Of a stretch of 64,000 nt of DNA, positions 38,804 through 61,281 are shown piece by piece. Location of the stretch: sequence record SRR20825010_2279. One strand, written 5' to 3'. How positions within the stretch are numbered: position 1 is the first letter of the stretch; every line of letters starts with the position of its first letter. A program made the translations under genes and the position numbers. The notes under the pieces were generated by a model. That model saw only the letters and a list, made by a program, of their open reading frames with translations. It did no database searches and had not been told where the DNA came from.

Positions 38804-38807
38804 GACT

Positions 38808-39060: not shown

Positions 39061-40128
39061 TTAAAAATCCGCTACCTCCCTAAGCCCCTTTTCATTTAAA
39101 ATAATGATCCTTCTTCCATGATCGGTGGCGATCAGGCCTTCGTTCTTAAAATCCGTTAAGGTACGGATAGCGGTTTCCGTTGCGGTACCGATCATACCGG
39201 CGAAATCCTCCCTCGGTATTCCTATTCCCCCATTGGGTCTGTCCTGTATAACTTGTTTATCATAAAGTTCCAACAGGGCCTTTGCAGCCCTTTGCCTTAC
39301 CGAGGCAAATGCCATATCCACCAATTGTTCCTGCAGATGCATAAGATTATTCGATATCATTCCAATAAATTTCTGTGAAACTACAGAGTTGCCATAAATT
39401 AATTTGGTAAAATCCTTCCTAGGTATGGCGCACATTTCGGCATCTTCCAACACAGTAGCATTTTCAACATAAACTTTATTGGAATTCAATAGGGAAAGTT
39501 GCCCAACAAAATCCCCAGGGCCAAATATTCCTGTTACAAATTCCTTTCCGGATTCCGTGCTTTTATAGGTCTTAACACTGCCTTGTTCAATGAAATACAA
39601 AGAATTTGCGTTATCACCTTCCCAGAAAATTATATCCTTTTTATTGTATTTCTTTAGGGGGTAATCCTTGGAAAGACTCTTCATATCAACGTATTGGGAG
39701 GCCTCGTCCAGGAATTTACTTAGGCCTTCCATGTTTTTGGCAATCTCCTTTTTAAGAAAGTCGCTCTTTCGTAATCGGGAGGAAATAGCTTCCAGCAATT
39801 CCTTTTCCTCAAATGGCTTGGTGAGATAATCGTCCGCCCCCAAATTCATTCCCAGTCTCACCTCTGCCCTATCGGTTTTTGCCGTCAAAAATATAAAGGG
39901 TATGCTAGCGGTTGTACTGTTTTTGCCCAATATTTCCAATACCCCATATCCGTCCAGTTCAGGCATCATTATATCGCATATGATTACGTCTGGCCTAAAT
40001 TTTTCCGCAAGTTCTACCCCAATTTTTCCATTCTCGGCGGTAGCTACCTCGTAATTGGCCAATTCCAATATGTCTGCTGTATTTTCCCTTACATCCTTGT
40101 TATCTTCAATTAATAGAATTCTTTTCAT
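39061..40128 (-). CDS. Response regulator: receiver + cNMP-like domain + Crp/Fnr HTH
   Basis: ILLIEDN, DIMMPELDG (phospho-Asp), KPF; C-terminal REDFAGMIGTATETAIRTL HTH; start 40128 or 40134. Confidence 0.92.
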   Translation of the reverse strand: MKRILLIEDNKDVRENTADILELANYEVATAENGKIGVELAEKFRPDVIICDIMMPELDGYGVLEILGKNSTTASIPFIFLTAKTDRAEVRLGMNLGADDYLTKPFEEKELLEAISSRLRKSDFLKKEIAKNMEGLSKFLDEASQYVDMKSLSKDYPLKKYNKKDIIFWEGDNANSLYFIEQGSVKTYKSTESGKEFVTGIFGPGDFVGQLSLLNSNKVYVENATVLEDAEMCAIPRKDFTKLIYGNSVVSQKFIGMISNNLMHLQEQLVDMAFASVRQRAAKALLELYDKQVIQDRPNGGIGIPREDFAGMIGTATETAIRTLTDFKNEGLIATDHGRRIIILNEKGLREVADF

Positions 40129-42859
40129 ATTCATTTATATTTATGGGCAGTTTTAGACTGAAGGTGCTTCCTTTCCCCAATTTACTTTTAAACCCTACAG
40201 TTCCGCTTAGAAGCCCCGTATACTGTTTTACTATATTAAGACCAAGTCCGGTCCCTTGGAAATTGGTGGCATTTTCCGCACGGTAAAATCGCTCGAACAA
40301 CTTTTTCTGATTTGCCTTAGGGATGCCGATTCCTTGATCCTTAACATGGATAAATAGCTCTTTATCATTAGCATCAACTTCCAATCCAATAATTTGTCCT
40401 TCCATGGAATACTTAATGGCATTAGAAAGTAGATTAATAATAATATGGTTCAACAATTTGGGGTCAAGACAAACCGATATAGAAGGTTGGGAATACTTTA
40501 AAACAATGTCCTGACCCTCTTTTTTGTTTGGTTCCATCTCATCTACCAACATTTTTAAGAATTGTATCAACTCAAAAAACTGTGGTTTCACAGATACCTT
40601 GCCCTCTTCCAACTTGCTCAAGGATAGAAAATCGTTAAGAATAACAACAAGATCCCTCACATTGGTCCTAATCCTGGAGACATGCTTCATCCTCCTATCC
40701 TCCTTACCTGGCTCATTCTGTTTTCCTATAAGTATAGCCGAAGAAAGAATAGCACTCAAAGGTGTGCGGAATTCATGGGAGGCTATCGTAATAAAACGGG
40801 ATTTTAACTCATTTAGTTCCTTTTCCACCATTATTGTCCTTTCAAGTTTATGCTGTACCTCTTTCTGCTCGGTAACATTGTTATAAACGAACAAGGCCCA
40901 CATTATTTTCTTTTCATCAGAATAGAGCGGTGTAGAATTAACAGCATAGCATTGGTCGTGAAAATCTACTTCAAATGAAATATTGCCCCCCCTTAGAGTT
41001 TTTCGAATATCCGATTTTATTTTTTTGATCTGTATTTTTGAAAAAACAGGGATGTCATCTATTGGAATTCCTTCAAAATCCGACTTTTTAATGTTGATTC
41101 GGTCCATTTCCTCCCCTTCCACATAAACCAATTCATAATCGGAATTAAATACCATGATGACCCCATTGGGAAAATTATGTGCAATAGCAGTAAACAAGGC
41201 CCTACTGAGATTTGCCTTCCTTTGAGCTCTTTGGGTCTCGATCATTTGATCTTCCAGATTTAAATTGGTCGATACCAGTTTTTCTACCGTAGTTCGAACT
41301 TCCCTAGTCCGTTCTTCAACTTTGTCTTCCAATACATGGGCATATTCCTCCAGTTTTCTCTTGGCATCCTGAATTTCGGTAACATCGTTGAGAACCCCAA
41401 TGAAATGCGTCAGTTTCTGATCTTGATCATATAGGGGCGTAATAAACAAATCGTTCCAAAAAAGAATGCCGTCCTTACTGTAATTCCGAATCAATACTCG
41501 GCAGGAACTACCGTGGTCAATGGCTTTGGACATAAAGGCAATTTCGGGCTGGTTACGATCGCCGTTCTGCAAGAATCTGCAATTTCTCCCCAGAACTTCA
41601 TCGGCCCCATATCCGGTAATTTGGGTAAAGGCCTTATTAGAATATATAATGGGAAGATCGGGATGCTGGGCATCCACAATAATAATACCGTTGCCTACGG
41701 CTTCCAAGGCCCTGTTTCTAATTTTTAAGGTTTCTTGGGTCAACTTGTTTTCCGTAATATCCAGTCCAGAACTTACGACAGCTATAATTTCATTGTTTCC
41801 ATTCCTCAAGGCAGCATTGCTCCATTGAATTAGGTGCTCTTGCCCTCCTTTGGCAACAATAGGGTTTTCATGAAAGTTGGGCAGATCTAATTTATCTTCA
41901 AAAATAGATTCAAAAAGTTGGATCAATTGGTTTTGCTTCCTTTTAGGTATAAATTCCTTAAACCAGTTTTTATTCAAAATAGCATCTTGTTCAATTCCCA
42001 ATATTTCACTGGTCCTTTTATTGACAAGTTGAACGGTATGGTCCTTATTGATCACTAAAAACATGGAAGGCGAAGTGTCCATATATTGGCGGAGCAATTT
42101 TTTTTCCATCACCAGGGCGTGTTCTGCAGTCTTCAACTCTGTATAATCCTGCATAAAGCCTTCCCGTCTATAAGGAATATCATTTTCATCCATAATACAG
42201 GAACCGTGCTCCCATATCCATTTTATTTCCTTTTTTGAGGTAATTATCCTATACCGAAGCTGGTACGATCCTTTTTCCATTACGGCCCTGTCAAGTTCAG
42301 ACTCAACCTGTGGCAAATCCTCTGGGTGAATTAAATTTCCCCAATTAAGTTTAGAGTTACCATAAAACTGATCAGGGGCATATCCACTAATAGTTCTGGA
42401 AGCCTCGCTAATGAATTCCATAGACCATGGCTTGGCAATACTACAACTGTATACAATTCCGGCAACATTGGTGACCAAAGTTCTGAACTTCCTGTCGCTT
42501 TCAAACACCGGGTTATCCGCTCGCTTGCAGTAGATCACTTTTAGGCTTTGGCCTTTTAGTACGGTTGGTACGATCCTAATATCGATAGGAAATTTAACCC
42601 CAGTCTTTTCCCGACCATAAAACTGATTGGGCCCTACTACAATCTCATTCATTTCCGCAGCAAGAGCATTGATCTTCCAGTCAGGAATAATCAAATGGAT
42701 ATCCTGCTGTAGCAACTCACCCTCAACATAACCGAACATTTGTTCTGCCGACTTGTTGGCGGTGAGAATAAATCCATTTTGGTCTACCACAATAAGTCCG
42801 GCTAAGGAAGATTCAAAAATGGATTGAAAAAGATCGCTATTTGTTATTTTTTCATTCAT
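40106..42859 (-). CDS. Multi-PAS sensor histidine kinase containing a LOV domain
   Basis: Several PAS repeats; GRNCRFLQ at 41590-41567; ASHEFRTPL H-box; NLLSNAIKY, DQGIGIP, GTGLGL; start 42859 preferred to TTG at 42964. Confidence 0.92.
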   Translation of the reverse strand: MNEKITNSDLFQSIFESSLAGLIVVDQNGFILTANKSAEQMFGYVEGELLQQDIHLIIPDWKINALAAEMNEIVVGPNQFYGREKTGVKFPIDIRIVPTVLKGQSLKVIYCKRADNPVFESDRKFRTLVTNVAGIVYSCSIAKPWSMEFISEASRTISGYAPDQFYGNSKLNWGNLIHPEDLPQVESELDRAVMEKGSYQLRYRIITSKKEIKWIWEHGSCIMDENDIPYRREGFMQDYTELKTAEHALVMEKKLLRQYMDTSPSMFLVINKDHTVQLVNKRTSEILGIEQDAILNKNWFKEFIPKRKQNQLIQLFESIFEDKLDLPNFHENPIVAKGGQEHLIQWSNAALRNGNNEIIAVVSSGLDITENKLTQETLKIRNRALEAVGNGIIIVDAQHPDLPIIYSNKAFTQITGYGADEVLGRNCRFLQNGDRNQPEIAFMSKAIDHGSSCRVLIRNYSKDGILFWNDLFITPLYDQDQKLTHFIGVLNDVTEIQDAKRKLEEYAHVLEDKVEERTREVRTTVEKLVSTNLNLEDQMIETQRAQRKANLSRALFTAIAHNFPNGVIMVFNSDYELVYVEGEEMDRINIKKSDFEGIPIDDIPVFSKIQIKKIKSDIRKTLRGGNISFEVDFHDQCYAVNSTPLYSDEKKIMWALFVYNNVTEQKEVQHKLERTIMVEKELNELKSRFITIASHEFRTPLSAILSSAILIGKQNEPGKEDRRMKHVSRIRTNVRDLVVILNDFLSLSKLEEGKVSVKPQFFELIQFLKMLVDEMEPNKKEGQDIVLKYSQPSISVCLDPKLLNHIIINLLSNAIKYSMEGQIIGLEVDANDKELFIHVKDQGIGIPKANQKKLFERFYRAENATNFQGTGLGLNIVKQYTGLLSGTVGFKSKLGKGSTFSLKLPININEYEKNSIN

Positions 42860-43015
42860 TGCCCTTTTACTGATTTTCACTTTATGGTCTTGGCCGCACC
42901 AACAAGGACGGACCGCTAAGGAGTTTTGTTGAATACACACTATCCATGGAGGCCTGTATTCCAATAATTTAGTACTCAGTTACACAAATGTATTGTTCAC
43001 TATAGCCGAAAGAAA

Positions 43016-43027
43016 TGATATCCGTCA
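43016..43027. promoter_or_regulatory. Palindrome TGAT-ATCC-GTCA for the LOV kinase operon
   Basis: Minus TACATTTG at 42992-42985, 23 bp away. Confidence 0.85.
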
Positions 43028-43053
43028 TAAGCTGTATCTGGATCCTAAAAACC

Positions 43054-43065
43054 TGATAACGGTCA
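43054..43065. promoter_or_regulatory. Palindrome TGAT-AACG-GTCA for the patatin gene
   Basis: TAATTTTG at 43089, 23-bp spacer. Confidence 0.85.
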
Positions 43066-43120
43066 TATGTGCATTTCTTTATATGGAATAATTTTGATTC
43101 AAATTCTAAATAAAGGGATT

Positions 43121-43960
43121 ATGACAACAGGCTTGGTCCTTTCTGGCGGTGGTATAAGGGGTGTTGCCCATATAGGGGCCATAAAGGCATTGGAGGAATA
43201 CGGTATTTATCCTACCCATATTGCTGGCACCAGCGCAGGGGCCATTGTTGGAGCCTTGTACGCTGCCGGCTGTAATTGGGAAGAAATGTTGGATTTTTTT
43301 AAGTCCACAGAAATCTTCAGTCTTACCAATTATGCTATGGGAAAACCTGGCTTTTTGGATACAGAAAAATTCCATGATCAATTAAAGGCCTACATATCCC
43401 ATGATACTTTCGAATCTTTGGGGAAGCAACTTTATGTAACGGCTACCAACCTACTTGATGGCACTTTGAATGTTTTTAGTGAAGGTGAACTAATAAAACC
43501 CGTATTAGCTTCGGCAGCTGTTCCTGGACTATTTGCCCCTGTAGAGATTAATAAAGGATATTACGTAGACGGCGGCACTTTGAATAATTTTCCTGTGGAC
43601 CTTATAAAAAAGTATTGCGATCAGATTGTGGGGGTCTATGTAAATCCGTTCAACCATGTGAGTATCAAGGAACTAAACCATGTGAACAAGGTTTTGGAAA
43701 GGGCCTATCATGTTATGGTGGCCAATGAAACCACCAAGAAATTTAAAGACTGTGATATATTGATACGTCCGGCCAACATGGATCGTTTTGGTATGTTTAC
43801 CCTAAAAAATTTAGATATTATTCTAGATTTGGGTTATAATGCAACTATGAACGCACTGAAGAACAGTGACCTTGCCTCAGAATTGCTATCAGCAGCAGAA
43901 TTGGAAGCTATGAATGGTTTTTCCATGGATACTTCCATTATTGGCAATCCACAGGATTAA
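43121..43960 (+). CDS. Patatin-like phospholipase
   Basis: LSGGGIRG, GTSAG, DGG; start moved to 43121. Confidence 0.92.
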   Translation: MTTGLVLSGGGIRGVAHIGAIKALEEYGIYPTHIAGTSAGAIVGALYAAGCNWEEMLDFFKSTEIFSLTNYAMGKPGFLDTEKFHDQLKAYISHDTFESLGKQLYVTATNLLDGTLNVFSEGELIKPVLASAAVPGLFAPVEINKGYYVDGGTLNNFPVDLIKKYCDQIVGVYVNPFNHVSIKELNHVNKVLERAYHVMVANETTKKFKDCDILIRPANMDRFGMFTLKNLDIILDLGYNATMNALKNSDLASELLSAAELEAMNGFSMDTSIIGNPQD

Positions 43961-44229
43961 ACTTTCTTGAATATCTTTTAATACCTTTAATTTTGAATTT
44001 TAGATATTGGATATTTACCCAGAGGAACGCTTAATTAAGGAATTTTAAATTCTTACCCCAGCTTATTACAACAACCGACTAGTGTATTTAACCTGTTATA
44101 ATTAATTTTCCAAGTGCTATCCAAATGGCAAAAGAAATTATCATTTTCCTTTAAACACACATCCTATATAAAATGCCCTGGGCCCGTACTGACCAATCTT
44201 GCGTCCATTAAAACCTTAATCCAAAGGAT

Positions 44230-46905
44230 TTAAGGGATAACACTATTGGGGTAAGCACGAAAATATAACACCCTTGCCCTTTTGAACAATTGTGCCAAGA
44301 CCAGTGCCCCAAATGCAAATAGGGCAGAATATCCCAATTGTTCCCAAGAAAGCATCTGCAACGAAAATGCCGCTGCCAAGGGAGTGCTTAGGTTGGCACC
44401 TAAAGTCAAGGCCAAAGACAGAATAATTGCTCCCCAAACCCATAAATTAGTTGTTATTTCATTTATGAAAAAGGATTCCCTTTGCTTTGGTATATTAAAT
44501 ACGTTGAGCAATTGGGCAAATACCAAGGTATAAAAAGCCATATTATTAATAGTTTCAGGGGAAAATTTCAGAATCTTATCCGCATAGGCAACAATGCCAA
44601 GAACAGCAATACTGATGGACAGCCCGTAGAGTACAATAAAATTCCAATCACTTTGTGACAATATAGGGTCCTTTGGTTTTTTGGGCGGTTGTTCCATGAT
44701 ATCCTTTTCCCCCTTTCCAAAACCCAAGGCCAATGCAGGAAAAACATCGGTCACCAAATTCAGGAACAGTATTTGTAAAGGCAACAGAGGTGATGGCAAA
44801 TTTAATAAAGCGGCAAAGCCTACCGTAAGTATTTCTGCCAAATTGCAGGATAATAAGTAAACGACAAATTGGCGAATATTCTGAAATATTACCCTCCCTT
44901 GCCTTATCCCCAATTCCATGGCCGTAAACTTATCATTTTTCAAAATCACGTCTGCCACTTCACGGGCTGCCTCCGCACCCCTAATGCCCATAGCTATACC
45001 TATGTCGGCCTTTTTTAAAGCCGGGACATCATTGATTCCATCTCCGATCATTCCAACAATATGGCCATGTTCTTGATAATAGTTTATCAAATTCAACTTT
45101 TGTTCCGGACCAACCCGAGCAAAAATAGAGGCATTCAACAAGACACTACCATTACCGTCGGTCCCATCCAAGCTCCTTGTAAGGTCCTTGCCATGCCAAA
45201 TTCTGTCTGGGCCTGCATTAATTTCCAAGATCCCAACTTCCTGAGCTATTTTTTTTGATGTGCCGGGATGATCACCGGTAACCATAATCACTTTAATACC
45301 CGCCTTCTTGTAAATATCAATCACCGCTTTCACATCTTCTCTGGCTGGATCCTGAAATCCTATGACCCCCAAAAAAGTAAGTCCGTCTAGAATATTTTCT
45401 CTTGCAGGGGCCTTCTCTTCTTCCTTATATGCGAAAGCCAGGGTGCGCAAACCTTGGGAGGCAAGAGTATCTACTTTTTGCTTCCATAAAAGTTTGTGTT
45501 CATTAAGGTCCAATTCTTTCCCATCCAAATCAAAATTGCAATGGTCTAATAAACTTTCATATGCCCCTTTCGCATAGATGGTAAAGCCTCCTTGTCTTTG
45601 ATGGGCCGTTGCCATTAACTTTAGTGTAGAATCAAATGGCAATTCCACTTTTTCCGGATTATTTCGTTTTACAAGCTCGGGATCATAACCCAAATTAATG
45701 GCAAAGTGCATCAAGGCCAATTCTATGGAATCGGCCTGTTCATCAATAGCTGTAGGGTCCACATTGTTACATAGGATCCCAGCCATGATCATTTTATCAA
45801 ATACAAGGTTGTTCTTAAAGGTGGAAAAATAGGATTGTTCCCTTTGATTGAGATTATCCAGGCATGTTTCTCCATAAATTATTGTAGATACCACCATCCG
45901 ATCTTCGGTCAAGGTACCTGTCTTATCCGTGAAGATGATATCTGTAGCCCCTAGAGTTTGTACAGCCTCCATTTTTTTAATGATGACCTGTTTTTGGGAC
46001 AACCTCATCATTCCCCTTTCAAGGGCAATAGTGGCTACTATTGGCAAACCCTCGGGAATAGCCGCAACCGCCAAAGCCACTCCCGTTTCTATCATCAGCA
46101 AAAGATCATTGCCCCTAAAATAGCCAATGACCACAATTAATCCTGCAATACCGAGCGTTAACCAAATGAGCCATTTGCTCAATTGGTTTAATTTCTTCTC
46201 CAAAGGGGTGCGGTCCTTGTCCGCATCCAAACCCATTTGTTGAATAGTCCCCAATTGTGAATACTTTCCTGTTGCCGTAACAATGGCTCTCCCAAAGCCC
46301 GAGCTGATCACTGTGCCCCTATAAACCATATTGGTACGATCCGTAACTGGAGTATCCTCCGGCAATGGTTCTATTCCTTTGCGAATCGAGAGACTCTCTC
46401 CTGTCAATACCGATTCTTTTACCGAAAGATTATCTACTTGTGTAAGGCGGGCATCGGCAGGAACGACATCACCCGGGCTCAAAACAATGACATCACCAGG
46501 TACCACATCCGCGGCTTTGATATCCATTCTTTGTCCAGACCTTATTACATCTGTGCTTGCCTGCCCCATTTTTATCAAGGCCTCCAAAGATCTAACCGCT
46601 TTAAGTTCCATAAAATATCCTATGGCCACAGAGATAAATATGACAAATAAAATGGCGGCACTCTCTAGCTCATCACTGAAAACGTAGGCAAGAATTCCTG
46701 CCGCAAAAAGGATATAAATTATGGGATCCAAGAGTTGTTCCAGAAAAATTGCCCATCTTTTCTTTGGATCTTGTGCCGGTATCCGATTTGGACCATATTT
46801 CTGCAAGCGTTCCGGAATGCACTCTTTATCCAAACCGCGTTCCAAATCACTGCCTGTGCAGGCAATTATTTCCTGCAGGGAGTAAAAAAAAGCATTTTGC
46901 AGCAT
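44230..46905 (-). CDS. Cation-translocating P-type ATPase (P2A/Ca2+-type, CtpF-like)
   Basis: LTGES, PEGLP, DKTGTLT, TGDH, GDGINDVPALKKADIG, QILFLNLVTD. Confidence 0.92.
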   Translation of the reverse strand: MLQNAFFYSLQEIIACTGSDLERGLDKECIPERLQKYGPNRIPAQDPKKRWAIFLEQLLDPIIYILFAAGILAYVFSDELESAAILFVIFISVAIGYFMELKAVRSLEALIKMGQASTDVIRSGQRMDIKAADVVPGDVIVLSPGDVVPADARLTQVDNLSVKESVLTGESLSIRKGIEPLPEDTPVTDRTNMVYRGTVISSGFGRAIVTATGKYSQLGTIQQMGLDADKDRTPLEKKLNQLSKWLIWLTLGIAGLIVVIGYFRGNDLLLMIETGVALAVAAIPEGLPIVATIALERGMMRLSQKQVIIKKMEAVQTLGATDIIFTDKTGTLTEDRMVVSTIIYGETCLDNLNQREQSYFSTFKNNLVFDKMIMAGILCNNVDPTAIDEQADSIELALMHFAINLGYDPELVKRNNPEKVELPFDSTLKLMATAHQRQGGFTIYAKGAYESLLDHCNFDLDGKELDLNEHKLLWKQKVDTLASQGLRTLAFAYKEEEKAPARENILDGLTFLGVIGFQDPAREDVKAVIDIYKKAGIKVIMVTGDHPGTSKKIAQEVGILEINAGPDRIWHGKDLTRSLDGTDGNGSVLLNASIFARVGPEQKLNLINYYQEHGHIVGMIGDGINDVPALKKADIGIAMGIRGAEAAREVADVILKNDKFTAMELGIRQGRVIFQNIRQFVVYLLSCNLAEILTVGFAALLNLPSPLLPLQILFLNLVTDVFPALALGFGKGEKDIMEQPPKKPKDPILSQSDWNFIVLYGLSISIAVLGIVAYADKILKFSPETINNMAFYTLVFAQLLNVFNIPKQRESFFINEITTNLWVWGAIILSLALTLGANLSTPLAAAFSLQMLSWEQLGYSALFAFGALVLAQLFKRARVLYFRAYPNSVIP

Positions 46906-46920
46906 ATGGGTTTAATTTAC

Positions 46921-47546: not shown

Positions 47547-47558
47547 TGATTTAGGTCA
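47547..47558. promoter_or_regulatory. Palindrome TGAT-TTAG-GTCA serving hsp20 and the divergent ATPase
   Basis: Minus TACTTTTA at 47523-47516 and plus TATTTTTA at 47582, both 23 bp away. Confidence 0.8.
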
Positions 47559-50990: not shown

Positions 50991-53555
50991 TTATCGCTGC
51001 CATAGAATCAGGTTATTCTCCAAGGGCACCGAAATATTTTCATAGCAGGGAACAATCCGGGCCGTATAATGACCGGCCGGTCTACTGGTCCCAATACACC
51101 CATGACACTCGTGATCCAACCCATTCTTAGCAAGTCCTATGATTTCCATTTTTATAATTTCATTTGCCCCCCCATTAAGGCCTTCGGCAAAGAGCTCTAC
51201 GGAAATGGTGTCTGGACTTATGTGGTTCAACCAGACCATTATTTTAAATTGATACCCTCCTGCAATATTTTCGATTTGGGCCTGGACAAAGCGCATTTTC
51301 CACCACTTATTTTGTAGATCAAGCTTGGTCTCAACTATTTTTTTTCCGAGCATTCCTTTTTTGGAAGATCTTTTTTTGTATTTGTTGGCTGCCGGAAGGT
51401 AATATTTCTCTGTATATTCCCGAACGGCTCGGTTTGCCGAAAACTTCGGGGTTAAGGTAGACATACTATTACGCATTTTTGCTACCCAATTTTCGGGTAT
51501 CCCCTCTTTATTTCGATCATAAAATTCCGGTACCACTTTTTGTTCCAACAATTCGTACAATTCATTGGCATCAATAGCGTCCCAGTAGGGATCCTCCCCA
51601 TGTTCATGACCATCGCCCATTGCCCAACCTACTTCCGGAGTATAGGCCTCCGCCCACCAACCGTCCAACTCCGATAAATTGATACCGCCATTGACCAAAA
51701 CCTTCATTCCACTTGTACCACAGGCCTCCCAGGGACGCCTAGGAGTATTTATCCAAACATCGACCCCTTGTACAAGATGCTCTGTTAACAACATATCATA
51801 ATCGCTTAGAAATACTACGTGCTTATATAAGTTATGTTGTTGAATAAATTGTACCCATTGTCTTATCAATGCCTTTCCAGACTCATCATATGGGGGAGAC
51901 TTTCCTGCAAGCACCAATTGCACCGGCCGCTGGGGGTTTGTTAGGATGCGAATAAATCTTTCCGGATCATGTAAAAGTAGGTTTGGCCTTTTATAGGGAA
52001 CGAATCGCCGTGCAAAACCCAAGGTCAAAGTTTCCTTGTTAAAAATATGCTTGGCCATTTCCACAATTTCAGGGGAGTGACCGGCATCCTCGGTCTGTCC
52101 TTGGAACCTTTCCCGGATAAAATTTATCATGTGATGCCTGGAATCGTTCCTGAACTGCCATAAAGCAACATCGGACAAGCAGTAAATGTCTTGCTCAACA
52201 GATTCCAAACGACCTCTCCAGCGTTCCTTTCCGCAGGAATGAGTCCAGATCTTATCGGCGAATACCGAATCCCAGCTGGGCATGTGAACTCCGTTGGTAA
52301 CATGTCCTATAGGCACTTCGCTGTTAGGCCACCTTTTAAATAAATTTCCAAAAAGTTTTCGACTTACCTCCCCATGAAGCCTACTTACCCCATTCACCGC
52401 ATTACTACCATGAATGGCCAGAAAGGCCATGTTAAAAAACTGGGATAAATTATGTGGGTCCTCCCTACCCAATGCCAAAAGATCATTAAAATCTAAATGT
52501 AATTCCTCTTTGGCATAATTGGCAAAAAACTGCCACATTAAGGACGGACTAAAATTATCAAATCCGGCCGCCACGGCAGTATGGGTGGTAAACAAATTTC
52601 CTGCACGGGTAACTGTCAAGGCCTCCTGAAAGGTAACACCATTCTCCCGCATAAAATTGGCCGCCCTTTCCAGTACAAGAAAGGCAGAGTGACCTTCGTT
52701 CATATGGCACACTTCCGGTGCAATATTCATGGCTCGGAGCAATCTCCATCCCCCTATACCTAGAATAATTTCTTGCTGAATACGAAGATCCGCCCCGCCA
52801 CCATATGCTGCACTGGTAATTCCCCTGTGAAGCGGCATATTAACCGGATCATTACTATCCAACAGGTAAAGTTTCACGCGGCCCACCTGTACCTGCCATG
52901 TGCGCAACCAAACCGTGTGCCCGGATAAGGATATATTGATCCGCAACCATTCCCCATTGGGCAACCTGAGTGGTGAAATAGGCAATTGCCCGGGATCATT
53001 GTACGGAAAAAGCGCCTGTTGGGTACCAAATTGATCTATCAACTGTCTAAAATATCCCTGTTGGTAAAGTAACCCCACGCCAATAACGGGAATCCCTAAA
53101 TCACTGGCCGATTTTAATTGATCCCCAGCAACATTACCCAAGCCCCCTACATAGATAGGCAGTGCCTCGCTAAGCATAAACTCCATACTGAAATAGGCAA
53201 TGCAGGTAAGGGGCGATGATGGATGGCTCCTTTGGAACCAAGCAGGATCGGTACTGGATTTTTCTTTCTGTGTCATCATTTCATCCAACCTTTCCCTAAA
53301 AACCTTGTCGGCCATTTGCTTTATCAGTTGGTCCCTTGATACGTTCTGCAAAACTACCCACGGATTATGTGTCTCCATCCATAGTTCGGGATCTAACTGG
53401 TACCAGATTTCATCTACGGCATGGTTCCAAGACCAGCGCAAATCAAGTGCCAACTCCCCAAGCTTGTCCACACCATCAATATCAGTTGGAATAAAACCAT
53501 AAACTTGGTTGTTTACAAGAGGTTGTCCCGAACTATTTTTTTCTTTTCCTGCCAC
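50991..53555 (-). CDS. glgP: Alpha-glucan (glycogen) phosphorylase, GT35
   Basis: YFSMEF...GGLG, HMNEGH, FARRFVPYKRP, EACGTSGMK PLP-lysine motif; GTG start uncertain. Confidence 0.93.
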   Translation of the reverse strand: MAGKEKNSSGQPLVNNQVYGFIPTDIDGVDKLGELALDLRWSWNHAVDEIWYQLDPELWMETHNPWVVLQNVSRDQLIKQMADKVFRERLDEMMTQKEKSSTDPAWFQRSHPSSPLTCIAYFSMEFMLSEALPIYVGGLGNVAGDQLKSASDLGIPVIGVGLLYQQGYFRQLIDQFGTQQALFPYNDPGQLPISPLRLPNGEWLRINISLSGHTVWLRTWQVQVGRVKLYLLDSNDPVNMPLHRGITSAAYGGGADLRIQQEIILGIGGWRLLRAMNIAPEVCHMNEGHSAFLVLERAANFMRENGVTFQEALTVTRAGNLFTTHTAVAAGFDNFSPSLMWQFFANYAKEELHLDFNDLLALGREDPHNLSQFFNMAFLAIHGSNAVNGVSRLHGEVSRKLFGNLFKRWPNSEVPIGHVTNGVHMPSWDSVFADKIWTHSCGKERWRGRLESVEQDIYCLSDVALWQFRNDSRHHMINFIRERFQGQTEDAGHSPEIVEMAKHIFNKETLTLGFARRFVPYKRPNLLLHDPERFIRILTNPQRPVQLVLAGKSPPYDESGKALIRQWVQFIQQHNLYKHVVFLSDYDMLLTEHLVQGVDVWINTPRRPWEACGTSGMKVLVNGGINLSELDGWWAEAYTPEVGWAMGDGHEHGEDPYWDAIDANELYELLEQKVVPEFYDRNKEGIPENWVAKMRNSMSTLTPKFSANRAVREYTEKYYLPAANKYKKRSSKKGMLGKKIVETKLDLQNKWWKMRFVQAQIENIAGGYQFKIMVWLNHISPDTISVELFAEGLNGGANEIIKMEIIGLAKNGLDHECHGCIGTSRPAGHYTARIVPCYENISVPLENNLILWQR

Positions 53556-54819: not shown

Positions 54820-54864
54820 AAGTAATATTTTGCTGAAGATATTTCCACAGCACGACATTGACAA

Positions 54865-54876
54865 TGACAAATGTCA
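54865..54876. promoter_or_regulatory. Palindrome TGAC-AAAT-GTCA
   Basis: Minus TATCTTCA at 54841-54834, 23 bp away. Confidence 0.8.
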
Positions 54877-55050: not shown

Positions 55051-55566
55051 TCAGCCTATTTTTAAATTGCGAATCCGGGCATTTATCGAAGCTATTTCCT
55101 CCTTTTGCAATTTTCCAATAAGAGTCCTAAAATCCTTTTCCAATCCCGGATCCTGATCTTTAATTTCACATAGGGCCTGTAAAGCGTTTACCCTTACAAT
55201 TCTACTTTCAGCAGGGTTGCCCGCCCACTCCTTAAGTTTGGCCAAGACTATTTCCAGCTCTAGGTCATTTAGGGGCAGTCTTGATACCAACAAGGAAAGG
55301 TGCCATTTCAATTCCTTGTCCTTGGCACTTTGGAGCAATGCCAATAAGTCTCCTTTATGACCGGCAAGATATTCTGGATGCCCAATAGTAATTTTTTCCA
55401 CGGCATCTGCAGCCCTCATAACTATTGGTCTATCCTTGGAGTACATATAACGGAATAAAATATCGAAGTCCTTCTGGTCCCTTATTAAAGGTAGAAGAAA
55501 CTTTACACCTCCTATGGTCCGTAGATCTCCACCCTCCAAATATTTTCTCATTTCTCCTTTATCCAT
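55051..55566 (-). CDS. Hypothetical alpha-helical (HEAT/ARM-like) protein
   Basis: MRAADAVEK...SRIVRVNALQAL repeat-like helices; last gene of a three-gene operon. Confidence 0.55.
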   Translation of the reverse strand: MDKGEMRKYLEGGDLRTIGGVKFLLPLIRDQKDFDILFRYMYSKDRPIVMRAADAVEKITIGHPEYLAGHKGDLLALLQSAKDKELKWHLSLLVSRLPLNDLELEIVLAKLKEWAGNPAESRIVRVNALQALCEIKDQDPGLEKDFRTLIGKLQKEEIASINARIRNLKIG

Positions 55567-55569
55567 GTC

Positions 55570-56331
55570 TTATGAACTTAGCATGCCTCCATCTACCACA
55601 TTGGTAGTTCCTGTTATATACTTACTTTCCTCCGAGGCCAGGAAAAGGGCCATTGCTGCAATCTCACTAGATTCTGCATAGCGCGCTAAAGGTACGGCAG
55701 CCTCAAAGCCCTTCATTACCTCATCAGGACTGCCGGGCGACATATCCACTTCAATACGCCGCATCATATTATTATTGACGGGACCTGGATGAATGGTATT
55801 CACGCGTATTTTACGTTTGGCATTTTCTTGGGCCGCAACCCTCATTATACCAACTACTGCATGTTTACTGGCCACATAAGCTCCCAATCCGGAAAAGCCC
55901 TTTAAACCTGCCACAGAAGACGTTATTATAACGCTTCCTCCATCCTGCATTTTCGGAATTACATGCTTGCACCCAAGCCATACTCCCTTTAAGTTTACCC
56001 CGATTACCTTATCGAAAACCTCGTCCGGATATTCCACAATTGGTTTGGAAGTACCTTCAATTCCGGCATTGGCGAAAAATATATCGATCTTTCCATGAAC
56101 CTCTAAGGTTGTTTCTACAAATTTTTCGGTGTCTATGGCTTTTGAAACATCGGCAACACAAATAGAGAGATTCTCATGATCTATGGCCAGGATTGCTTTT
56201 TCCAAAACCTCTCTATCAATATCCACGATAACCACCTTGGCACCTTCCTTTAAAAAGAGTTTGGCCGTAGCCAATCCTATTCCTCCCGCACCGCCTGTAA
56301 TAACGGCTACTTTATCCTTTAATCGCCCCAT
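55570..56331 (-). CDS. Short-chain dehydrogenase/reductase
   Basis: TGGAGGIG, NAG, YVASK; start MGRLKDK at 56331. Confidence 0.92.
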   Translation of the reverse strand: MGRLKDKVAVITGGAGGIGLATAKLFLKEGAKVVIVDIDREVLEKAILAIDHENLSICVADVSKAIDTEKFVETTLEVHGKIDIFFANAGIEGTSKPIVEYPDEVFDKVIGVNLKGVWLGCKHVIPKMQDGGSVIITSSVAGLKGFSGLGAYVASKHAVVGIMRVAAQENAKRKIRVNTIHPGPVNNNMMRRIEVDMSPGSPDEVMKGFEAAVPLARYAESSEIAAMALFLASEESKYITGTTNVVDGGMLSS

Positions 56332-56333
56332 TT

Positions 56334-56972
56334 TTAATTGTTTAAAGTTATCTTTCTTACTTCCCAACCTTGATCTTGAGTATATACCGCAACAAGACCA
56401 GCAGATAATTGTTTTACCCCCATTGCAGGCATCTGGTACCTTCTTTTGGTCATTTGGATATTGTACCTTCTATTGAAGAACTCTATAATCTCCCCTGAAG
56501 TGTCCAACATAACATCGTGAAACTTAAATTCATAAATATCTAGATTGAACTCGTTTTTTCCCTTCATGGATTTCTCAAAAAGGACCGCCGTGGTAAAACC
56601 ATCCTTAAAAGGGTAAACATTTAATAGTTGGGGTTCAAGTACTACATTACCCTTGGTATCTATAAACCCATAAACGGGAACACCATCCTCCACAATTTTA
56701 GTAATTAGGCACCGTCCTTCATTGAACATAGGGTATTGAACACCGGAAATATCCTTTTTTGAGGTATCGGCATCCTTGTTCCAATAAATATCGGTGCGAA
56801 AATCAATGACCATTGTACCCTCTTCATTAATAAATCCCCATTGATTTCCTTGTCTAACGGCCGCCAATCCTTCGCTAAACGGAGCTATCTCATCAATGTT
56901 CTTAACGGTTTGGGAATGGAATACATTTGGAAGCATAAGCATTATGAATGCCGTAATAATAAATTTTTTCAT
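56334..56972 (-). CDS. Secreted WG-repeat protein
   Basis: Signal peptide; FSEGLAAVRQGNQWGFINEEG and YGFIDTKG repeats. Confidence 0.85.
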   Translation of the reverse strand: MKKFIITAFIMLMLPNVFHSQTVKNIDEIAPFSEGLAAVRQGNQWGFINEEGTMVIDFRTDIYWNKDADTSKKDISGVQYPMFNEGRCLITKIVEDGVPVYGFIDTKGNVVLEPQLLNVYPFKDGFTTAVLFEKSMKGKNEFNLDIYEFKFHDVMLDTSGEIIEFFNRRYNIQMTKRRYQMPAMGVKQLSAGLVAVYTQDQGWEVRKITLNN

Positions 56973-57024
56973 GACTTTGAATTTTAGTTTCTTCTAAAAT
57001 AGTGCATCGCAATCCAGTACAAAA

Positions 57025-57036
57025 TGACCAATGTCA
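57025..57036. promoter_or_regulatory. Palindrome TGAC-CAAT-GTCA for the WG-SDR operon
   Basis: Minus TATTTTAG at 57001-56994, 23 bp away. Confidence 0.82.
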
Positions 57037-57164
57037 TTAGTGTACAAATATAAAAGCCCAAGCTCGGCCTTTCATCCATGTTATTGATTTGGAAGAGTAT
57101 ATAAAATATTAGCCCTACCAAATTTCAGGGCTCCGAAAAGTGTCTTTAATTAAAACTGATATAG

Positions 57165-57176
57165 TGACCAATATCA
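57165..57176. promoter_or_regulatory. Palindrome TGAC-CAAT-ATCA for usp
   Basis: TATTTTTG at 57200, 23-bp spacer. Confidence 0.85.
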
Positions 57177-57354
57177 TTTTAAATAGTCCGGCTGCTTTAT
57201 ATTTTTGTTTAAGAATATTTTGGCATTCTAAAGAGACCTTGGCCCAATGCAACCAGAATTGACAATTTTGCAAGGGGACTATCTCACCACTTTAGGGAAT
57301 TGAAACGGCTGCCAAAGGTGGAACAAAGATGATTACAACCCAAAAAAACATACA

Positions 57355-58179
57355 ATGAAACATATATTGGTACCTGTTGATTTTTCCGAGCACTCGGCCT
57401 ATGCACTGGAAGCCGCTGCTGGTATAGCAAAACAGCAGAACGCAGATATTACCATAATACATATGCTGGGAATTTCCGAAGCAGTAATAGCCGAAGAGGA
57501 ATTATTGGAGTACGAAGAAGCCAAATACTTTATGGGGCTTGCAAAGAAAAAATTTAAGCCCTTTCTGGACAAACCTTATTTAAAGGGTATCACTATTCAT
57601 AAAATAGTGCAGAATTATAAGGTATTCAGTGAGCTCAACAATGTTGCCAAGGAACAAAATATAGATTTGATCGTAATGGGATCACATGGTAGTACCGGTT
57701 TCAACGAGATTTTTATTGGCTCCAATACCGAAAAGGTGGTACGTAATTCAGATGTCCCGGTTTTGGTTATAAAGGAGCAAAAATCAAACTTCACCATAAA
57801 GAATATCCTTTTCGCCTGTAGTTTTTCGGAGGACATGGTTATGGCCTATAAAAATGTTAAGCTTATGGCTCAAAAATTTTCGGCCAAATTAAAATTGGTA
57901 TACATTAATACTCCATATCAGGATTTTTTGAGTTCACAGGAAGCTGACGATCGCATGGCCAAATTCATGTCCAAGGCCGGGGATACCCAAGCTAAAGTTG
58001 AAATTTATAATGACCGTAGTGTGGAAAATGGGATACTTAATTTTAGTAAGACCGAAAAATTTGACCTTCTCGCACTTCCAACACATGGAAGAAAAGGCCT
58101 TTCTCATTTCTTATTGGGCAGTATTGGTGAAGATATCGCCAACCACGCAAGATTGCCGGTAATGACATTTAAGATCTGA
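57355..58179 (+). CDS. Universal stress protein
   Basis: ILVPVDFS, MGSHGSTGFNEIFIGSNTEKVVR, THGRKG...LGSI. Confidence 0.93.
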   Translation: MKHILVPVDFSEHSAYALEAAAGIAKQQNADITIIHMLGISEAVIAEEELLEYEEAKYFMGLAKKKFKPFLDKPYLKGITIHKIVQNYKVFSELNNVAKEQNIDLIVMGSHGSTGFNEIFIGSNTEKVVRNSDVPVLVIKEQKSNFTIKNILFACSFSEDMVMAYKNVKLMAQKFSAKLKLVYINTPYQDFLSSQEADDRMAKFMSKAGDTQAKVEIYNDRSVENGILNFSKTEKFDLLALPTHGRKGLSHFLLGSIGEDIANHARLPVMTFKI

Positions 58180-58212
58180 TCAATGATCGGAGTCCCAAAT
58201 AATACTAAAGGT

Positions 58213-58617
58213 TTATTCTTTTAGCAAAAGTTCCAATTTGCCCAGCATTACCAATTCTGCTTTATTTTTTCCTGAAAAACTATTGGAAATGGCGTTTGCG
58301 GTATCCAAAATAAGTACCTTGATAAACTTACTGAACATATTGCTATTATCTTTATAGAACTCCTTAAACTCATCGAAGCAAACTTCACTATCCTTATCTT
58401 TGTCCATGGCCCAATCGAATACCGATTCGATTTGAAAAGCGGCATCTGTTCCAAATTCATCTTCCAGCTCATCAACCTCCAACCAATATTTTCTAATAAA
58501 GGACCTTAACTTACTTACTTCCTTGGCATGTACGCGGGAATCTGCCATGGCAATGGCGTAGAATAATTTTCCCAGGTTTTCATACAGTTCCTTACCTATT
58601 TTCTTTGTATTTTCCAT
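58213..58617 (-). CDS. TerB-like protein
   Basis: LFYAIAMADSRVHAKE resembles the TerB AD-x-x-V-x-x-x-E motif. Confidence 0.55.
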   Translation of the reverse strand: MENTKKIGKELYENLGKLFYAIAMADSRVHAKEVSKLRSFIRKYWLEVDELEDEFGTDAAFQIESVFDWAMDKDKDSEVCFDEFKEFYKDNSNMFSKFIKVLILDTANAISNSFSGKNKAELVMLGKLELLLKE

Positions 58618-58673
58618 GTTTAGATTGTTATAGACAATGAGCTAAAATTAGCAAATAGCCCAAGTATTATATA

Positions 58674-58685
58674 TGACAATAATCA
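58674..58685. promoter_or_regulatory. Palindrome TGAC-AATA-ATCA between the terB-like gene and the heme-PAS kinase
   Basis: Minus TAATTTTA at 58650-58643 (23 bp); plus TATCTTTG at 58698-58705 (12 bp). Confidence 0.8.
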
Positions 58686-58709
58686 GTTTAAAAATTTTAT
58701 CTTTGGCTT

Positions 58710-60221
58710 ATGCAGGCCTTTCAAAAAAACAGTGAAATATTCAACCTTCTTTCGGAAGGGGTATCCGAAGGAATTATAGTTGTCAATACCCAACAGCTTA
58801 TAGTAGCCACCAATTCCTCGGCCGGGAGAATGTTTGGTTACAGTAAGGGAGAGCTCCTTGGAAAACCCCTGGACACCCTAATACCTAGAAGGTACCACGG
58901 GCATCACGGTCACCATGTGGAGGACTTTATTGATAAAAGTGAACGTCGGCAAATGGGCCGGGGCAGGGATTTACATGGGGTAAGAAAAAACGGGGAGGAA
59001 TTTCCTGTTGAGGCGGGTCTAAATCCGTTTAAGCTTTATGACGAAACCTATGTCATGGCCCTAGTAATTGATATTACCGAACGTAAGGTCAAAGAAAAAG
59101 AACTCAGCCATTGGGCAAGGATATTTGATGAATCCCTCAATGAAATCTATGTTTTCGACGCCATCTCAAAATATTTTGTGAACGTAAACAAAGAGGCCCA
59201 GCGAAATATGGGCTATAACCTGGAAGAATTTAAGACATTGAAGCCATTGGACATTAAGCCCCATATGGACTCCCCACAATTCCAATTGCTAATAGAACCC
59301 TTGCTTAACGGCTCAAGGGACAAGGTAAAGTTTGAAACCGACCATCAAAGAAAGGACGGGTCTATCTATCCCGTAGAAGTACATTTGCAACTATCTACAT
59401 TTGGTGAAAAAGATGTTATTGTAGCTATAATACTTGATATTACAGAGAGAAGGAATTATACCGAAAAGCTGGAAAAAAAGGTCCAAGAGCGTACCAAACA
59501 ACTTACGGAAGCTTTGGTCAAGGAGAAGGAATTGAACGAGCTAAAAACACGCTTCCTTTCCTTGGTTTCCCATGAATTTAAGACCCCTTTGAGCAGTATA
59601 CTTACCTCTATTACCTTATTGTCCAAGTATACCGAAAGTCACCAACAGGAAAAGAGGGATAAGCACGTTGAAACCATAAAGAACAAAGTACGCTATCTGG
59701 ATACTATTTTGACCGATTTTCTTTCGGTGGAGCGTTTGGATTCTGGAAAGGTAAATTACAAGTTAGAAACTTTCCCTTTAAGCAAAATTGTAAACGAGGT
59801 AGTCTATGGTGCCAACATGCTCCTTAAGGCGGGCCAAACCATTAAATATCCGGAGAATATCGATGATATTTTCATCAGATTTGACGAAAAAACCTTGGAA
59901 CTGGCCTTGTCCAACCTAATACATAATGCCATTAAATATTCCCCAGAAGATACAACTATAAGTCTAGCGGTGAGCAATGGTAAGGACACCGTACTAATAA
60001 ATGTGATCGATCGTGGAATTGGCATACCTGCACAGGACCAAAAACATATTTTTAATCGTTATTTTAGGGCAGAAAATGCATTGTTGAACCAAGGTACGGG
60101 TATTGGACTTAACATTGCGAAACAGCATTTGGAAAATCTTGGCGCCACTATTGAATTTACCAGTGAAGAAAACAAAGGATCTATATTTACTATAGTTATC
60201 CCGTTAGAAAACATAAATTGA
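58710..60221 (+). CDS. PAS-PAS sensor histidine kinase with FixL-like heme-PAS domain
   Basis: LIPRRYHGHH...MGRGR...RKNGEEFPVE; VSHEFKTPL H-box; NAIKY, DRGIGIP, GTGIGL. Confidence 0.9.
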   Translation: MQAFQKNSEIFNLLSEGVSEGIIVVNTQQLIVATNSSAGRMFGYSKGELLGKPLDTLIPRRYHGHHGHHVEDFIDKSERRQMGRGRDLHGVRKNGEEFPVEAGLNPFKLYDETYVMALVIDITERKVKEKELSHWARIFDESLNEIYVFDAISKYFVNVNKEAQRNMGYNLEEFKTLKPLDIKPHMDSPQFQLLIEPLLNGSRDKVKFETDHQRKDGSIYPVEVHLQLSTFGEKDVIVAIILDITERRNYTEKLEKKVQERTKQLTEALVKEKELNELKTRFLSLVSHEFKTPLSSILTSITLLSKYTESHQQEKRDKHVETIKNKVRYLDTILTDFLSVERLDSGKVNYKLETFPLSKIVNEVVYGANMLLKAGQTIKYPENIDDIFIRFDEKTLELALSNLIHNAIKYSPEDTTISLAVSNGKDTVLINVIDRGIGIPAQDQKHIFNRYFRAENALLNQGTGIGLNIAKQHLENLGATIEFTSEENKGSIFTIVIPLENIN

Positions 60222-60228
60222 AAGAGCA

Positions 60229-61281
60229 ATGAAGACAATTCTATTAATCGAGGACGATAGGGCCTTGCGTGAAAATACCGAAGAGCTTTTGGAGCTTTCA
60301 GGTTATTCCATGATTACGGCCCCAAACGGAAAAATTGGTATTCAAATGGCCAAGGAAAAATTGCCGGATATCATTGTCTGCGATATTATGATGCCAGAGG
60401 TGGATGGTTATGGCGTTCTAAAGGACTTGTCTTCAGACGAAAGCACCAAACATATTCCCTTTATATTCCTATCTGCCAAAACCGAACATAAAGAGATACG
60501 ACGTGGAATGGATCTGGGCGCCGATGATTACCTTACCAAGCCTTTTGAAGAGGAAGACCTCATAAACGCCATAGAAAGTAGATTGGCCAAAGTGGAACTA
60601 TTGGGGCGTATGGCAAAGGAAGGGACGCTGGATCCGGCCGTTTCGGAAGATCAGATACGCACCTTGAACGAGTTGAAGAATTTTTTTGACGACAATGGAG
60701 AACCCACTAGTTTTCCCCAAGGCAGTACCATCTACCAAGAAGGGACCTATTCTCATAAAATATACCTTATCCTAAAAGGGGTCGTAAAATGCCATACTAT
60801 GGACGAGGACGGAAAAGAATTGATCACTTCCCTGTTTAGGGCAGATGACTTTTTGGGATTTACCTCCTTTATAGACAATATTCCTTATCAGGAATCGGCA
60901 ACCGCCATCGAGGATGTGGAACTGGCCGGGATATCCAAGGAAAATTTAAAGCAGGTGTTGGAAAAGAACCACAATATCTCCTTGGAACTCATGGAACTGC
61001 TTACTGGAAATATTAAGGACATAAAACAGCAATTGTTGCAAATGGCCTATAGTTCCGTGCGAAAGAAAACCGCCCAAACCTTGTTGCAGTTCGCAGAAAT
61101 AATGAACAAAAAAACCGAGGATCCCATTAAAATTTCCCGAAATGATCTGGCCAGTGTAGCCGGTATTGCTACCGAAAGCCTTATCCGCACGCTGTCCGGA
61201 TTCAAAAAGGAAGGACTAATAGACATTGAAGGCAGAAATATCCGTATCAAGGAATTAAAGGCCCTGCAATACATCAATTAA
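60229..61281 (+). CDS. Response regulator: receiver + cNMP-like domain + Crp/Fnr HTH
   Basis: ILLIEDD, DIMMPEVDG, KPF; RNDLASVAGIATESLIRTL HTH. Confidence 0.92.
   Translation: MKTILLIEDDRALRENTEELLELSGYSMITAPNGKIGIQMAKEKLPDIIVCDIMMPEVDGYGVLKDLSSDESTKHIPFIFLSAKTEHKEIRRGMDLGADDYLTKPFEEEDLINAIESRLAKVELLGRMAKEGTLDPAVSEDQIRTLNELKNFFDDNGEPTSFPQGSTIYQEGTYSHKIYLILKGVVKCHTMDEDGKELITSLFRADDFLGFTSFIDNIPYQESATAIEDVELAGISKENLKQVLEKNHNISLELMELLTGNIKDIKQQLLQMAYSSVRKKTAQTLLQFAEIMNKKTEDPIKISRNDLASVAGIATESLIRTLSGFKKEGLIDIEGRNIRIKELKALQYIN

Follow-up and report, generated by a model that had tools for sequence, protein, structure and literature searches.

In the FixL-FixJ-FixK system of rhizobia and Caulobacter, a soluble haem-PAS kinase stands on top, FixJ with its LuxR-type output follows, and a separate FixK, with a Crp-family helix-turn-helix (HTH) and the consensus TTGAT-N4-ATCAA, forms the bottom layer facing low-oxygen and stress genes. 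The DosS/DosT-DosR (DevR) system of Mycobacterium consists of two paralogous kinases with GAF-haem sensors and one NarL-type regulator, its dormancy regulon being rich in Usp and α-crystallin/Hsp20 proteins. In the bacterial LOV histidine kinases—the LovK proteins of Brucella and Caulobacter, EL346 and YF1, the latter being the standard LOV kinase tool and an artificial LOV-FixL chimera—a LOV domain with the motif GXNCRFLQ lies upstream of HisKA and HATPase_c, and the partner is a single-domain, PhyR-linked or LuxR-type regulator. The class II activation known for CRP and FNR of Escherichia coli relies on a dimeric Crp-fold protein near −41.5. The window analysed here, i.e. the whole stretch of 64,000 nucleotides from the sequence record SRR20825010_2279, comes from a marine flavobacterium and contains two paralogous pairs, each consisting of a PAS histidine kinase and a REC-cNMP-Crp regulator, designated below as pair A (with a LOV domain in the kinase) and pair B (with a haem-PAS).

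Based on the results given below, the stress island surrounding both pairs is regarded, with slightly more confidence than doubt, as a class II Crp/FNR-style regulon read by two phospho-activated REC-Crp paralogues, the light pair being placed hierarchically inside the regulon. The likeness to FixL-FixJ-FixK concerns the soluble haem-PAS kinase on top, the FNR/FixK-type palindrome with a Crp-family HTH at the bottom and the low-oxygen/stress targets; unlike in that system, the receiver is fused here to the Crp module, there is neither a FixJ nor a separate FixK, the locus has a second, paralogous pair with a LOV domain and the box reads (A/C)TGAY-N4-RTCAT. The regulator beside each kinase is composed of REC, cNMP and Crp HTH, not of REC and a LuxR/GerE HTH. 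With DosS/DosT-DosR the locus shares two paralogous kinases apparently converging on a Usp/Hsp20-rich regulon, but the sensors are PAS domains, the regulators are two and of the Crp type, and one input is a photoreceptor. Because the regulator is a receiver-Crp fusion, the system belongs to neither of these two. Blue-light control of kinase/phosphatase activity would be expected as in the known LOV kinases; unlike in those, the LOV takes the fourth place among five PAS domains, has Leu for the active-site Gln and is partnered by a REC-Crp protein. As in CRP/FNR class II activation, a 12-14-bp palindrome stands at a fixed distance from the core promoter, at about −41.5, whereas activation presumably proceeds by phosphorylation of the receiver rather than by cAMP or an Fe-S cluster, and the promoter is of the Bacteroidota −7 type (TAnnTTTG). 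Both LOV kinases and haem-PAS kinases are well known; what is new is their pairing with a REC-Crp regulator, their joint presence on one regulon and the natural fusions of the two sensors described below. The literature, as far as covered (subscription journals being outside), yielded no paper describing a REC-Crp regulator together with a haem-PAS or LOV kinase in Bacteroidota.

The preliminary description had reported two kinase-regulator pairs at 42859-39061 (minus) and 58710-61281 (plus), with closely similar H-boxes, similar receivers, the recognition helices ATETAIRTL and ATESLIRTL, and one FixL-like haem-PAS sensor beside a multi-PAS sensor with LOV. All of this was recovered: the open reading frames (ORFs) lie at these coordinates, both H-box strings are present letter for letter with 16 of 22 residues in common, both helix strings occur, and the haem-PAS belongs to the plus-strand kinase and the LOV to the minus-strand multi-PAS kinase. 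The kinase of pair A comprises a degenerate haem-PAS-like PAS1, two more PAS domains, LOV, a coiled coil, another PAS, HisKA and HATPase_c. Its ORF is open up to a TTG at 42964 (a 952-aa reading), the length from the ATG agreeing with that of the same-genus orthologue (917 aa); the genes for regulator and kinase overlap by 29 nt. In Pfam, both kinases have PAS, HisKA and HATPase_c, and both regulators Response_reg, cNMP_binding (PF00027) and HTH_Crp_2 (PF13545) above the cut-off; HisKA, HATPase_c and Response_reg, all above the cut-off across the four proteins, identify them as members of two-component systems. The receivers have kept the acidic pocket (EDN/EDD), the phospho-Asp (CDIMMPE), the Thr/Ser (FLTAKT/FLSAKT) and the Lys (TKPF), and the two regulators have an identity of 41% along their whole length (E 1e-92). 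The match of both pairs to the described anatomy is far above chance.

For whole-genome comparisons the nearest genome (G001), having 68% of the sampled words of the window in common, was used. Among its 16 REC matches there are exactly two full-length REC-cNMP-Crp proteins, 96% and 42% identical to the A regulator and located ~20 kb apart, and the core of its B kinase is nearest to the A kinase (44%), a third kinase coming next (41%). This third one is a PAS kinase (locus L003, G001:C1:112827-116186; 1999-3336 of the locus, minus), after which a 125-aa stand-alone receiver (1483-1860, minus), 41% identical to the receiver of the A regulator, is encoded; the two could act as a sink for phosphate or as a branch of this network.

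The best solved matches of the Crp part of the regulator are CRP itself (E 4e-20). The CRP positions E72, R82 and S83, which we take to be the phosphate/ribose contacts, align with Gln, Tyr and Val in the A regulator, setting it apart from CRP proper, and since the cNMP-like domain is devoid of the cAMP contacts of CRP, the receiver is the likely switch. The N-terminus is formed by the receiver domain, with no FNR-type N-terminal Cys cluster, so that the protein is not an FNR proper either. The recognition helix reads TATETAIR in A (13 of 20 rows being identical over ten residues) and IATE(S/T)LIR in B, the CRP base-contact positions Thr 180, Glu 181 and Arg 185 being the same in both clades. 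In a quick maximum-likelihood tree the A regulators (20 rows; Shimodaira-Hasegawa-like approximate likelihood ratio test, SH-aLRT, 99) and the B regulators (39 rows; SH-aLRT 100) form separate clades and would be regarded as sister clades; only one of the four outgroup loci gave a regulator and midpoint rooting puts the out-of-family sequence on the A side, and no root or direction is claimed. The idea of pair A as a recent duplicate nested inside B is not supported by this tree.

Concerning the oxygen branch, 13 of the 14 best PDB matches to the PAS-A of the B kinase are the haem-PAS domains of FixL, DosP or EcDOS (E 4e-12 to 4e-8), the remaining one being a multi-sensor histidine kinase (10jx). 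In the HMMER alignment His66 coincides with the FixL His, which we take to be the proximal haem ligand of FixL, and Arg86 with the FixL Arg; the proximal column is occupied by His in all 37 B-type kinases. The B kinase is on this basis probably a soluble FixL/DosP-like haem-PAS oxygen sensor. In the A kinase, PAS1 is related to the B haem-PAS but degenerate, having an 8-residue deletion and no His; seven A kinases retain the His of this haem-like PAS1.

Among solved structures, the LOV domain of the A kinase has its best matches in LOV domains (E 7e-35), and over residues 417-545 the YtvA-family model yields 145.9 bits. The motif GRNCRFLQ with the adduct Cys is intact (residues 459-466 of the 952-aa reading), and the active-site Gln on strand Iβ is replaced by Leu, in FIGVLND. 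In a study of such receptors (PMC9098866), Gln-to-Leu variants of YF1, PAL and AsLOV2 are reported to retain the photocycle, with a signal of about half the amplitude and a 10- to 22-fold slower recovery, and ~350 natural LOV proteins without the Gln are counted, most having Leu or Ile. Because these variants, as described there, photocycle, signal and recover slowly, the LOV domain of pair A is probably a working and more light-sensitive photoreceptor.

The survey of the family covered 301 genomes, one per genus, with regulator matches taken at E 1e-45 or better. At least one REC-Crp regulator of this type is present in 137 of the 301 genomes, and the identity to the A regulator is bimodal, 20 matches in 19 genomes reaching at least 56% and the rest lying at 41-49%. 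Pair A occurs in 19 genera, 16 of which also have a lower-identity (B-type) match; the A-type genomes without it are G002, G162 and G111, the last being only 90% complete. The B-type regulator adjoins a haem-PAS-scoring kinase in 36 of 38 loci, and at the level of the class a B-like regulator is present in 134 of the 251 genomes surveyed. Seven B-type kinases (L036, L041, L043, L055, L057, L060 and L064) are haem-PAS-LOV-HK fusions of ~626 aa that have kept the haem-PAS His and an intact NCRFLQ; L060 matches DosP/FixL over residues 8-123 (E 3e-18) and LOV domains over residues 130-258 (E 5e-35). Judged by their domains, these fusions would be natural O2-plus-light dual sensors, and with seven of them at hand, light and oxygen modules appear to have been joined repeatedly on this pathway. 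The earlier expectation that a light-plus-oxygen switch would be unusual in a flavobacterium has to be toned down, the dual pairs occurring in 16 of the 301 genera and the two sensors being fused in one kinase in seven other genera. A third REC-Crp clade, with the helix TTKESLTRTL, is seen in L047 and L053 (genomes G235 and G295), where the ~405-aa kinases are without haem-PAS and LOV signatures and the boxes near the regulators are TTGAT-N4-GTCAA-like.

The island extends from ~21 kb to the end of the window and encodes at least six Usp proteins, Hsp20, two P-type ATPases, Pta-AckA, a PEP-utilising enzyme, glucokinase, a PfkB kinase, glycogen phosphorylase, an ABC1 kinase, YtxH, a patatin-like lipase, an M50-CBS protease and an efflux operon. 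The palindrome ATGA-N6-TCAT occurs 12 times in the window as compared with 1.72 expected, a number reached in none of 100 shuffles. The shorter TGA-N6-TCA occurs 27 times, 17 of these sites standing between genes or at the first codons of an ORF called too long; all these 17 fall within 21048-62250 and have the core TGAY-N4-RTCA, the operons of both pairs sitting among them (Table 1). In G001 the 14-mer pattern has 56 sites genome-wide versus 25 for the reversed-pattern control, with 11 of the 56 inside a 49-kb island, and in 60 related loci there are ~3.0 sites per kb of intergenic sequence versus 0.33-0.40 per kb of coding sequence, none of the coding sites having the extended consensus (A/C)TGAY.

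The boxes stand at a fixed distance from a promoter element. Of the 406 boxes from all loci, 129 have a strict TAnnTTTG that begins 29.5 nt away from their centre, in one single distance bin, the second-fullest bin having 9 boxes, which are the distal boxes of double sites. With TAnnTTTG taken, as we presume, to be the Bacteroidota −7 element, the box centre would be near −41.5, i.e. in class II CRP/FNR geometry, this estimate depending on the presumed position of the element. A −7-like element at the 29.5-nt spacing was found in at least one direction for all 17 boxes of the window. Across the loci, the share of boxes with a relaxed −7-like element depends on the gene faced: Usp_d 50/56, Usp_c 42/49, unk134 23/28, Hsp20 17/24, YtxH 12/18, the A kinase 11/20, patatin 8/20 and the B kinase 1/32. 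The conserved box ~30 nt ahead of the B kinase start belongs, by this count (23/28 facing unk134 versus 1/32 facing the B kinase), to the divergent unk134. Positive autoregulation of the B operon through this conserved box, at −36, was considered and ruled out, the −7 element being on the unk134 side. The A operon is a predicted class II target (box 43016), and the B operon is predicted not to be one. Since only the A operon has such a box, the circuit would be asymmetric, with the light pair in the regulon and the oxygen pair outside, which suggests a hierarchical rather than symmetric arrangement of the pairs.

Table 1 Features of the two pairs and palindromic boxes of the island (positions in the window)
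Feature	Position	Strand	Description
Pair A sensor histidine kinase	40106..42859	minus	ORF and translation, Pfam and NCBIfam domains; 917 aa from ATG 42859; phospho-accepting His codon 40775-40777
LOV domain of pair A kinase	41330..41716	minus	adduct Cys codon 41579-41581; Leu for active-site Gln at 41390-41392
Pair A response regulator	39061..40134	minus	REC, degenerate cNMP-binding domain, Crp-type HTH; recognition helix TATETAIRTL
Pair B sensor histidine kinase	58710..60221	plus	503 aa: haem-PAS-like PAS-A, PAS-B, HisKA, HATPase_c
Pair B PAS-A	58728-59084	plus	His66 codon 58905-58907, Arg86 codon 58965-58967
Pair B response regulator	60229..61281	plus	REC, cNMP-like domain, Crp-type HTH; recognition helix IATESLIRTL
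Box TGATATCCGTCA	43016..43027		−7-like TACATTTG 29.5 nt from centre, towards pair A operon: predicted class II promoter
Box TGATAACGGTCA	43054..43065		38 bp from 43016 box; TAATTTTG at fixed spacing towards patatin-like gene
Box TGACAATAATCA	58674..58685		between unk134 and pair B kinase gene; −7-like TAATTTTA on unk134 side, none facing kinase
Box TGATTTATATCA	38037..38048		precedes YtxH-unk114-DUF6327 operon (TATTTTTG at fixed spacing) and divergent unk187
Box TGATTTAAATCA	37394..37405		precedes unk255-unk131-unk121 genes
Box TGATTTAGGTCA	47547..47558		common to Hsp20 (minus) and P-type ATPase 2 (plus); −7-like elements in both directions at fixed spacing
Box TGACCAATGTCA	61315..61326		precedes Usp gene at 61383; TAGTTTTG at fixed spacing
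Box TGATAAATGTCA	62250..62261		precedes Usp gene at 62315; TAACTTTG at fixed spacing
Box TGACCAATGTCA	57025..57036		precedes WG-repeat/SDR operon (minus)
Box TGACCAATATCA	57165..57176		precedes Usp gene at 57355; TATTTTTG at fixed spacing
Box TGACAAATGTCA	54865..54876		5' end of M50-CBS peptidase gene (minus)
Box TGATATATGTCA	32667..32678		precedes unk128 and ABC1 kinase gene
Box TGACTTCTATCA	28768..28779		between Usp (minus; TAATTTTA at fixed spacing) and Pta-AckA (plus)
Box TGATTTATATCA	25237..25248		upstream of PfkB-family kinase and glucokinase genes
Boxes TGACCTAAGTCA at 21969 and TGACCAATGTCA at 22028	21969..22039		between unk171 (minus) and PNPOx-like gene (plus)
Box TGAGAAAAATCA	21048..21059		precedes HlyD-FtsX-ABC efflux operon (minus)

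The double box 43016/43054 is conserved in other genera. As the longest-ORF starts of the patatin-like (43067-43960) and PNPOx-like (22034-22606) genes lie in or beside a box and upstream of the predicted −7 element, the true starts are probably further downstream. The YtxH-unk114-DUF6327 operon (38123-39026, plus) and unk187 (37467-38030, minus) have one bidirectional box in common and accompany the A pair in nearly every genus having it. The 134-aa unk134 (58213-58617, minus), without a Pfam family, is the divergent partner of the B kinase in most genera; as the owner of the conserved class II box there, it is a predicted core member of the regulon. The central carbon genes of the boxed island are located at 22701-32146 and 50991-53555, with a glycogen debranching enzyme just upstream of the island (14455-16431), and the carbon genes of the island suggest a switch to glycogen use and acetate fermentation. 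Assembled contigs of the RNA library X16 span the YtxH operon in a single piece (38122-39162), and further coverage is seen for Hsp20, for the patatin gene and, as far as 42968, for the 5' end of the A kinase; these contigs carry no strand, level or start information, may include DNA carry-over and say nothing about the parts they do not cover.

The reading of one island regulon with two inputs has to be weighed against several observations, the most serious of which concern the question whether the paralogues read one palindrome or two. The preliminary description had both regulators reading the same one, for which the common core, the identical base-contact residues and the equal flavours of the boxes in the window speak (G/C at half-site position 5 being 3/12 on the A side and 3/12 on the B side). 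Across genera, with that of the window excluded, the picture is different. The A-side half-sites are TGA followed by C (54%) or T (42%), then C (43%), A (20%), G (20%) or T (15%), then T (66%), whereas on the B side TGA is followed by T (63%) or C (31%), A (61%) or T (21%), and A (46%) or T (49%); position 5 is C/G in 63% versus 16%. In 15 of the 17 two-pair genomes the A-side boxes are the G/C-richer ones at this position (Wilcoxon p 0.0006, overstated since the genomes are kin). The recognition helix has one clade-fixed difference, Ala in A and Leu in B, and with it and the differing boxes the paralogues may discriminate. Also the interfaces differ: the DHp helix is SHEFRTPLSAILSSAILIGKQNEPGK in A versus SHEFKTPLSGILTSaTLLGKYTltEQ in B, and the receiver helix α1 is EDNkDVRENTADIL in A versus EDDtaLRENTAELL in B, i.e. 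similar at the DHp and REC interface positions, yet with clade-specific differences as would be expected for insulated pairs, which argues weakly against free cross-talk. A prediction of cross-phosphorylation, raised as possible in the preliminary description, was tried from the specificity residues and gave only these clade-specific differences and no verdict. Taken to its end, this evidence would give two partitioned regulons, that of A (YTAR/CTAG centres) holding its neighbours—the YtxH operon, unk187, unk255, patatin, Hsp20 and the P-type ATPase—under the control of light, that of B (AWWT centres) holding Usp, WG-repeat and M50 genes under the control of O2, with little overlap or cross-talk. 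Such a partition agrees also with the A pair being accompanied by the same box-bearing neighbours even when far from B, and with the Hsp20 box, the flavour of which changes with its neighbour, being TGACCTAGGTCA-like beside A and TGATAATTATCA-like in B-only genomes. It is, however, considered rather unlikely for the window, since the difference in flavour is absent just here and in G042 of the same genus—the two exceptions among the 17—and marginal in G001, the base-contact residues are identical, and G162 (completeness 100%), with an A-type regulator only according to the regulator query, has both flavours, AT-centred boxes preceding the Usp genes beside its A pair. TGACCAATGTCA and TGATTTAWATCA had been considered as marks of two regulons in this genome and were dropped, the A-like/B-like log-odds score not separating the A-side boxes of the window from the B-side ones. 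A common core with a partly diverged centre, and overlap in this genus, seem likely; a shared regulon is plausible here, whereas partly separate regulons are likely in other genera, given the 15 of 17 two-pair genomes. The claim of one palindrome is supported in part, by the core, the contact residues and the boxes of the window, and is weakened by the Ala/Leu difference and by those 15 genomes.

The points remaining on the negative side concern the two sensors and the reader of the boxes. The distal-Arg column of the haem pocket has Arg in 24 of 37 B-type kinases and in none of the seven haem-PAS-LOV fusions; the −41.5 position has the dependence stated above; and no binding, phosphotransfer, spectroscopy or expression experiment on any member was found in the literature. 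With the Gln absent and a coiled coil and a further PAS lying in between, the coupling of the LOV to DHp is uncertain. Pair A might even be no light sensor in vivo, its LOV reporting the flavin redox state or another ligand or being signalling-dead, and another PAS being the true input. This agrees with Leu at the Gln position being confined to the window and G001 among the 25 aligned LOV domains of the REC-Crp system (the other 23 having 20 Gln, 2 His and 1 Ser), and with the burial of the LOV among four other PAS domains, three of them without an assigned ligand. The LOV is, moreover, dispensable in the clade, as two A-type kinases are without it and the A-type kinase of another genus (L014, 6335-9100) has GKNGRFLQ, i.e. 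Gly instead of the adduct-forming Cys. The possibility is nevertheless held to be improbable in view of the intact NCRFLQ and LOV core, the closeness to solved LOV domains, the retention of LOV in 17 of 19 scorable A-type kinases and, according to PMC9098866, the engineered Gln-to-Leu receptors that still signal and the natural proteins without Gln. Still less probable is that the boxes are read mainly by another Crp/Fnr-family protein, with different targets left for the REC-Crp regulators. At least one Crp-like protein without a receiver partner domain, sharing 32% identity with the A regulator over the C-terminal 206 aa of the latter, is encoded in G001 as a stand-alone protein and could read similar boxes, but in all genera sampled the boxes cluster around both pairs, box and regulator pair are found together across the 60 loci, and one island alone accounts for 11 of the 56 genome-wide sites in G001.

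The circuit that we infer—ligand sensing, phosphotransfer, DNA binding, direction of regulation and overlap being read from gene anatomy, domain identity at the sequence level, box enrichment and geometry, and distribution—would then work as follows. The island (~21-64 kb) would be a class II regulon with at least 17 promoters and pair B its widespread and probably primary input: the haem-PAS kinase would report O2 and phosphorylate the B regulator, which would bind the TGAY-N4-RTCA boxes centred near −41.5 and recruit RNA polymerase. As the B operon has no class II promoter, its own expression is probably independent of the regulon. Pair A would be the rarer paralogue, the kinase of which has lost the haem ligand of PAS1 and carries a LOV that should still form the flavin-cysteinyl adduct and signal, with a slower dark recovery due to the Gln-to-Leu exchange. 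Both inputs most likely overlap on the same promoters, because the base-contacting residues are the same and the boxes indistinguishable in this genus. With a class II box of its own before the A operon, the light branch would itself be switched on by the regulon, via the phosphorylated B regulator, the phosphorylated A regulator or both. The outcome would be a hierarchical or feed-forward light-plus-oxygen circuit instead of two equal arms.

On a wider scale, and only tentatively, since we hold the following to be somewhat less probable than not, the receiver-Crp protein may be in Flavobacteriaceae and Bacteroidia a one-step equivalent of FixLJ-K, fitted repeatedly with haem-PAS and LOV sensors, the oxygen branch licensing the light branch and both driving one class II dormancy-like regulon. 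The stress-protected state would then be entered only under a defined combination of light or dark with low O2, as in sinking into sediment or a biofilm. If this is true, a regulator would be at hand for the low-oxygen/stress switch, none being described so far in this very large group of bacteria from sea and soil, and the merging of a photoreceptor with a haem O2 sensor, on one promoter set or in single-chain haem-PAS-LOV kinases, would show how bacteria compute with two cues. The boxes and their fixed promoter spacing would make the regulon directly amenable to reporters, and the kinases may serve as new optogenetic parts, nature joining here the modules that were combined artificially in YF1.

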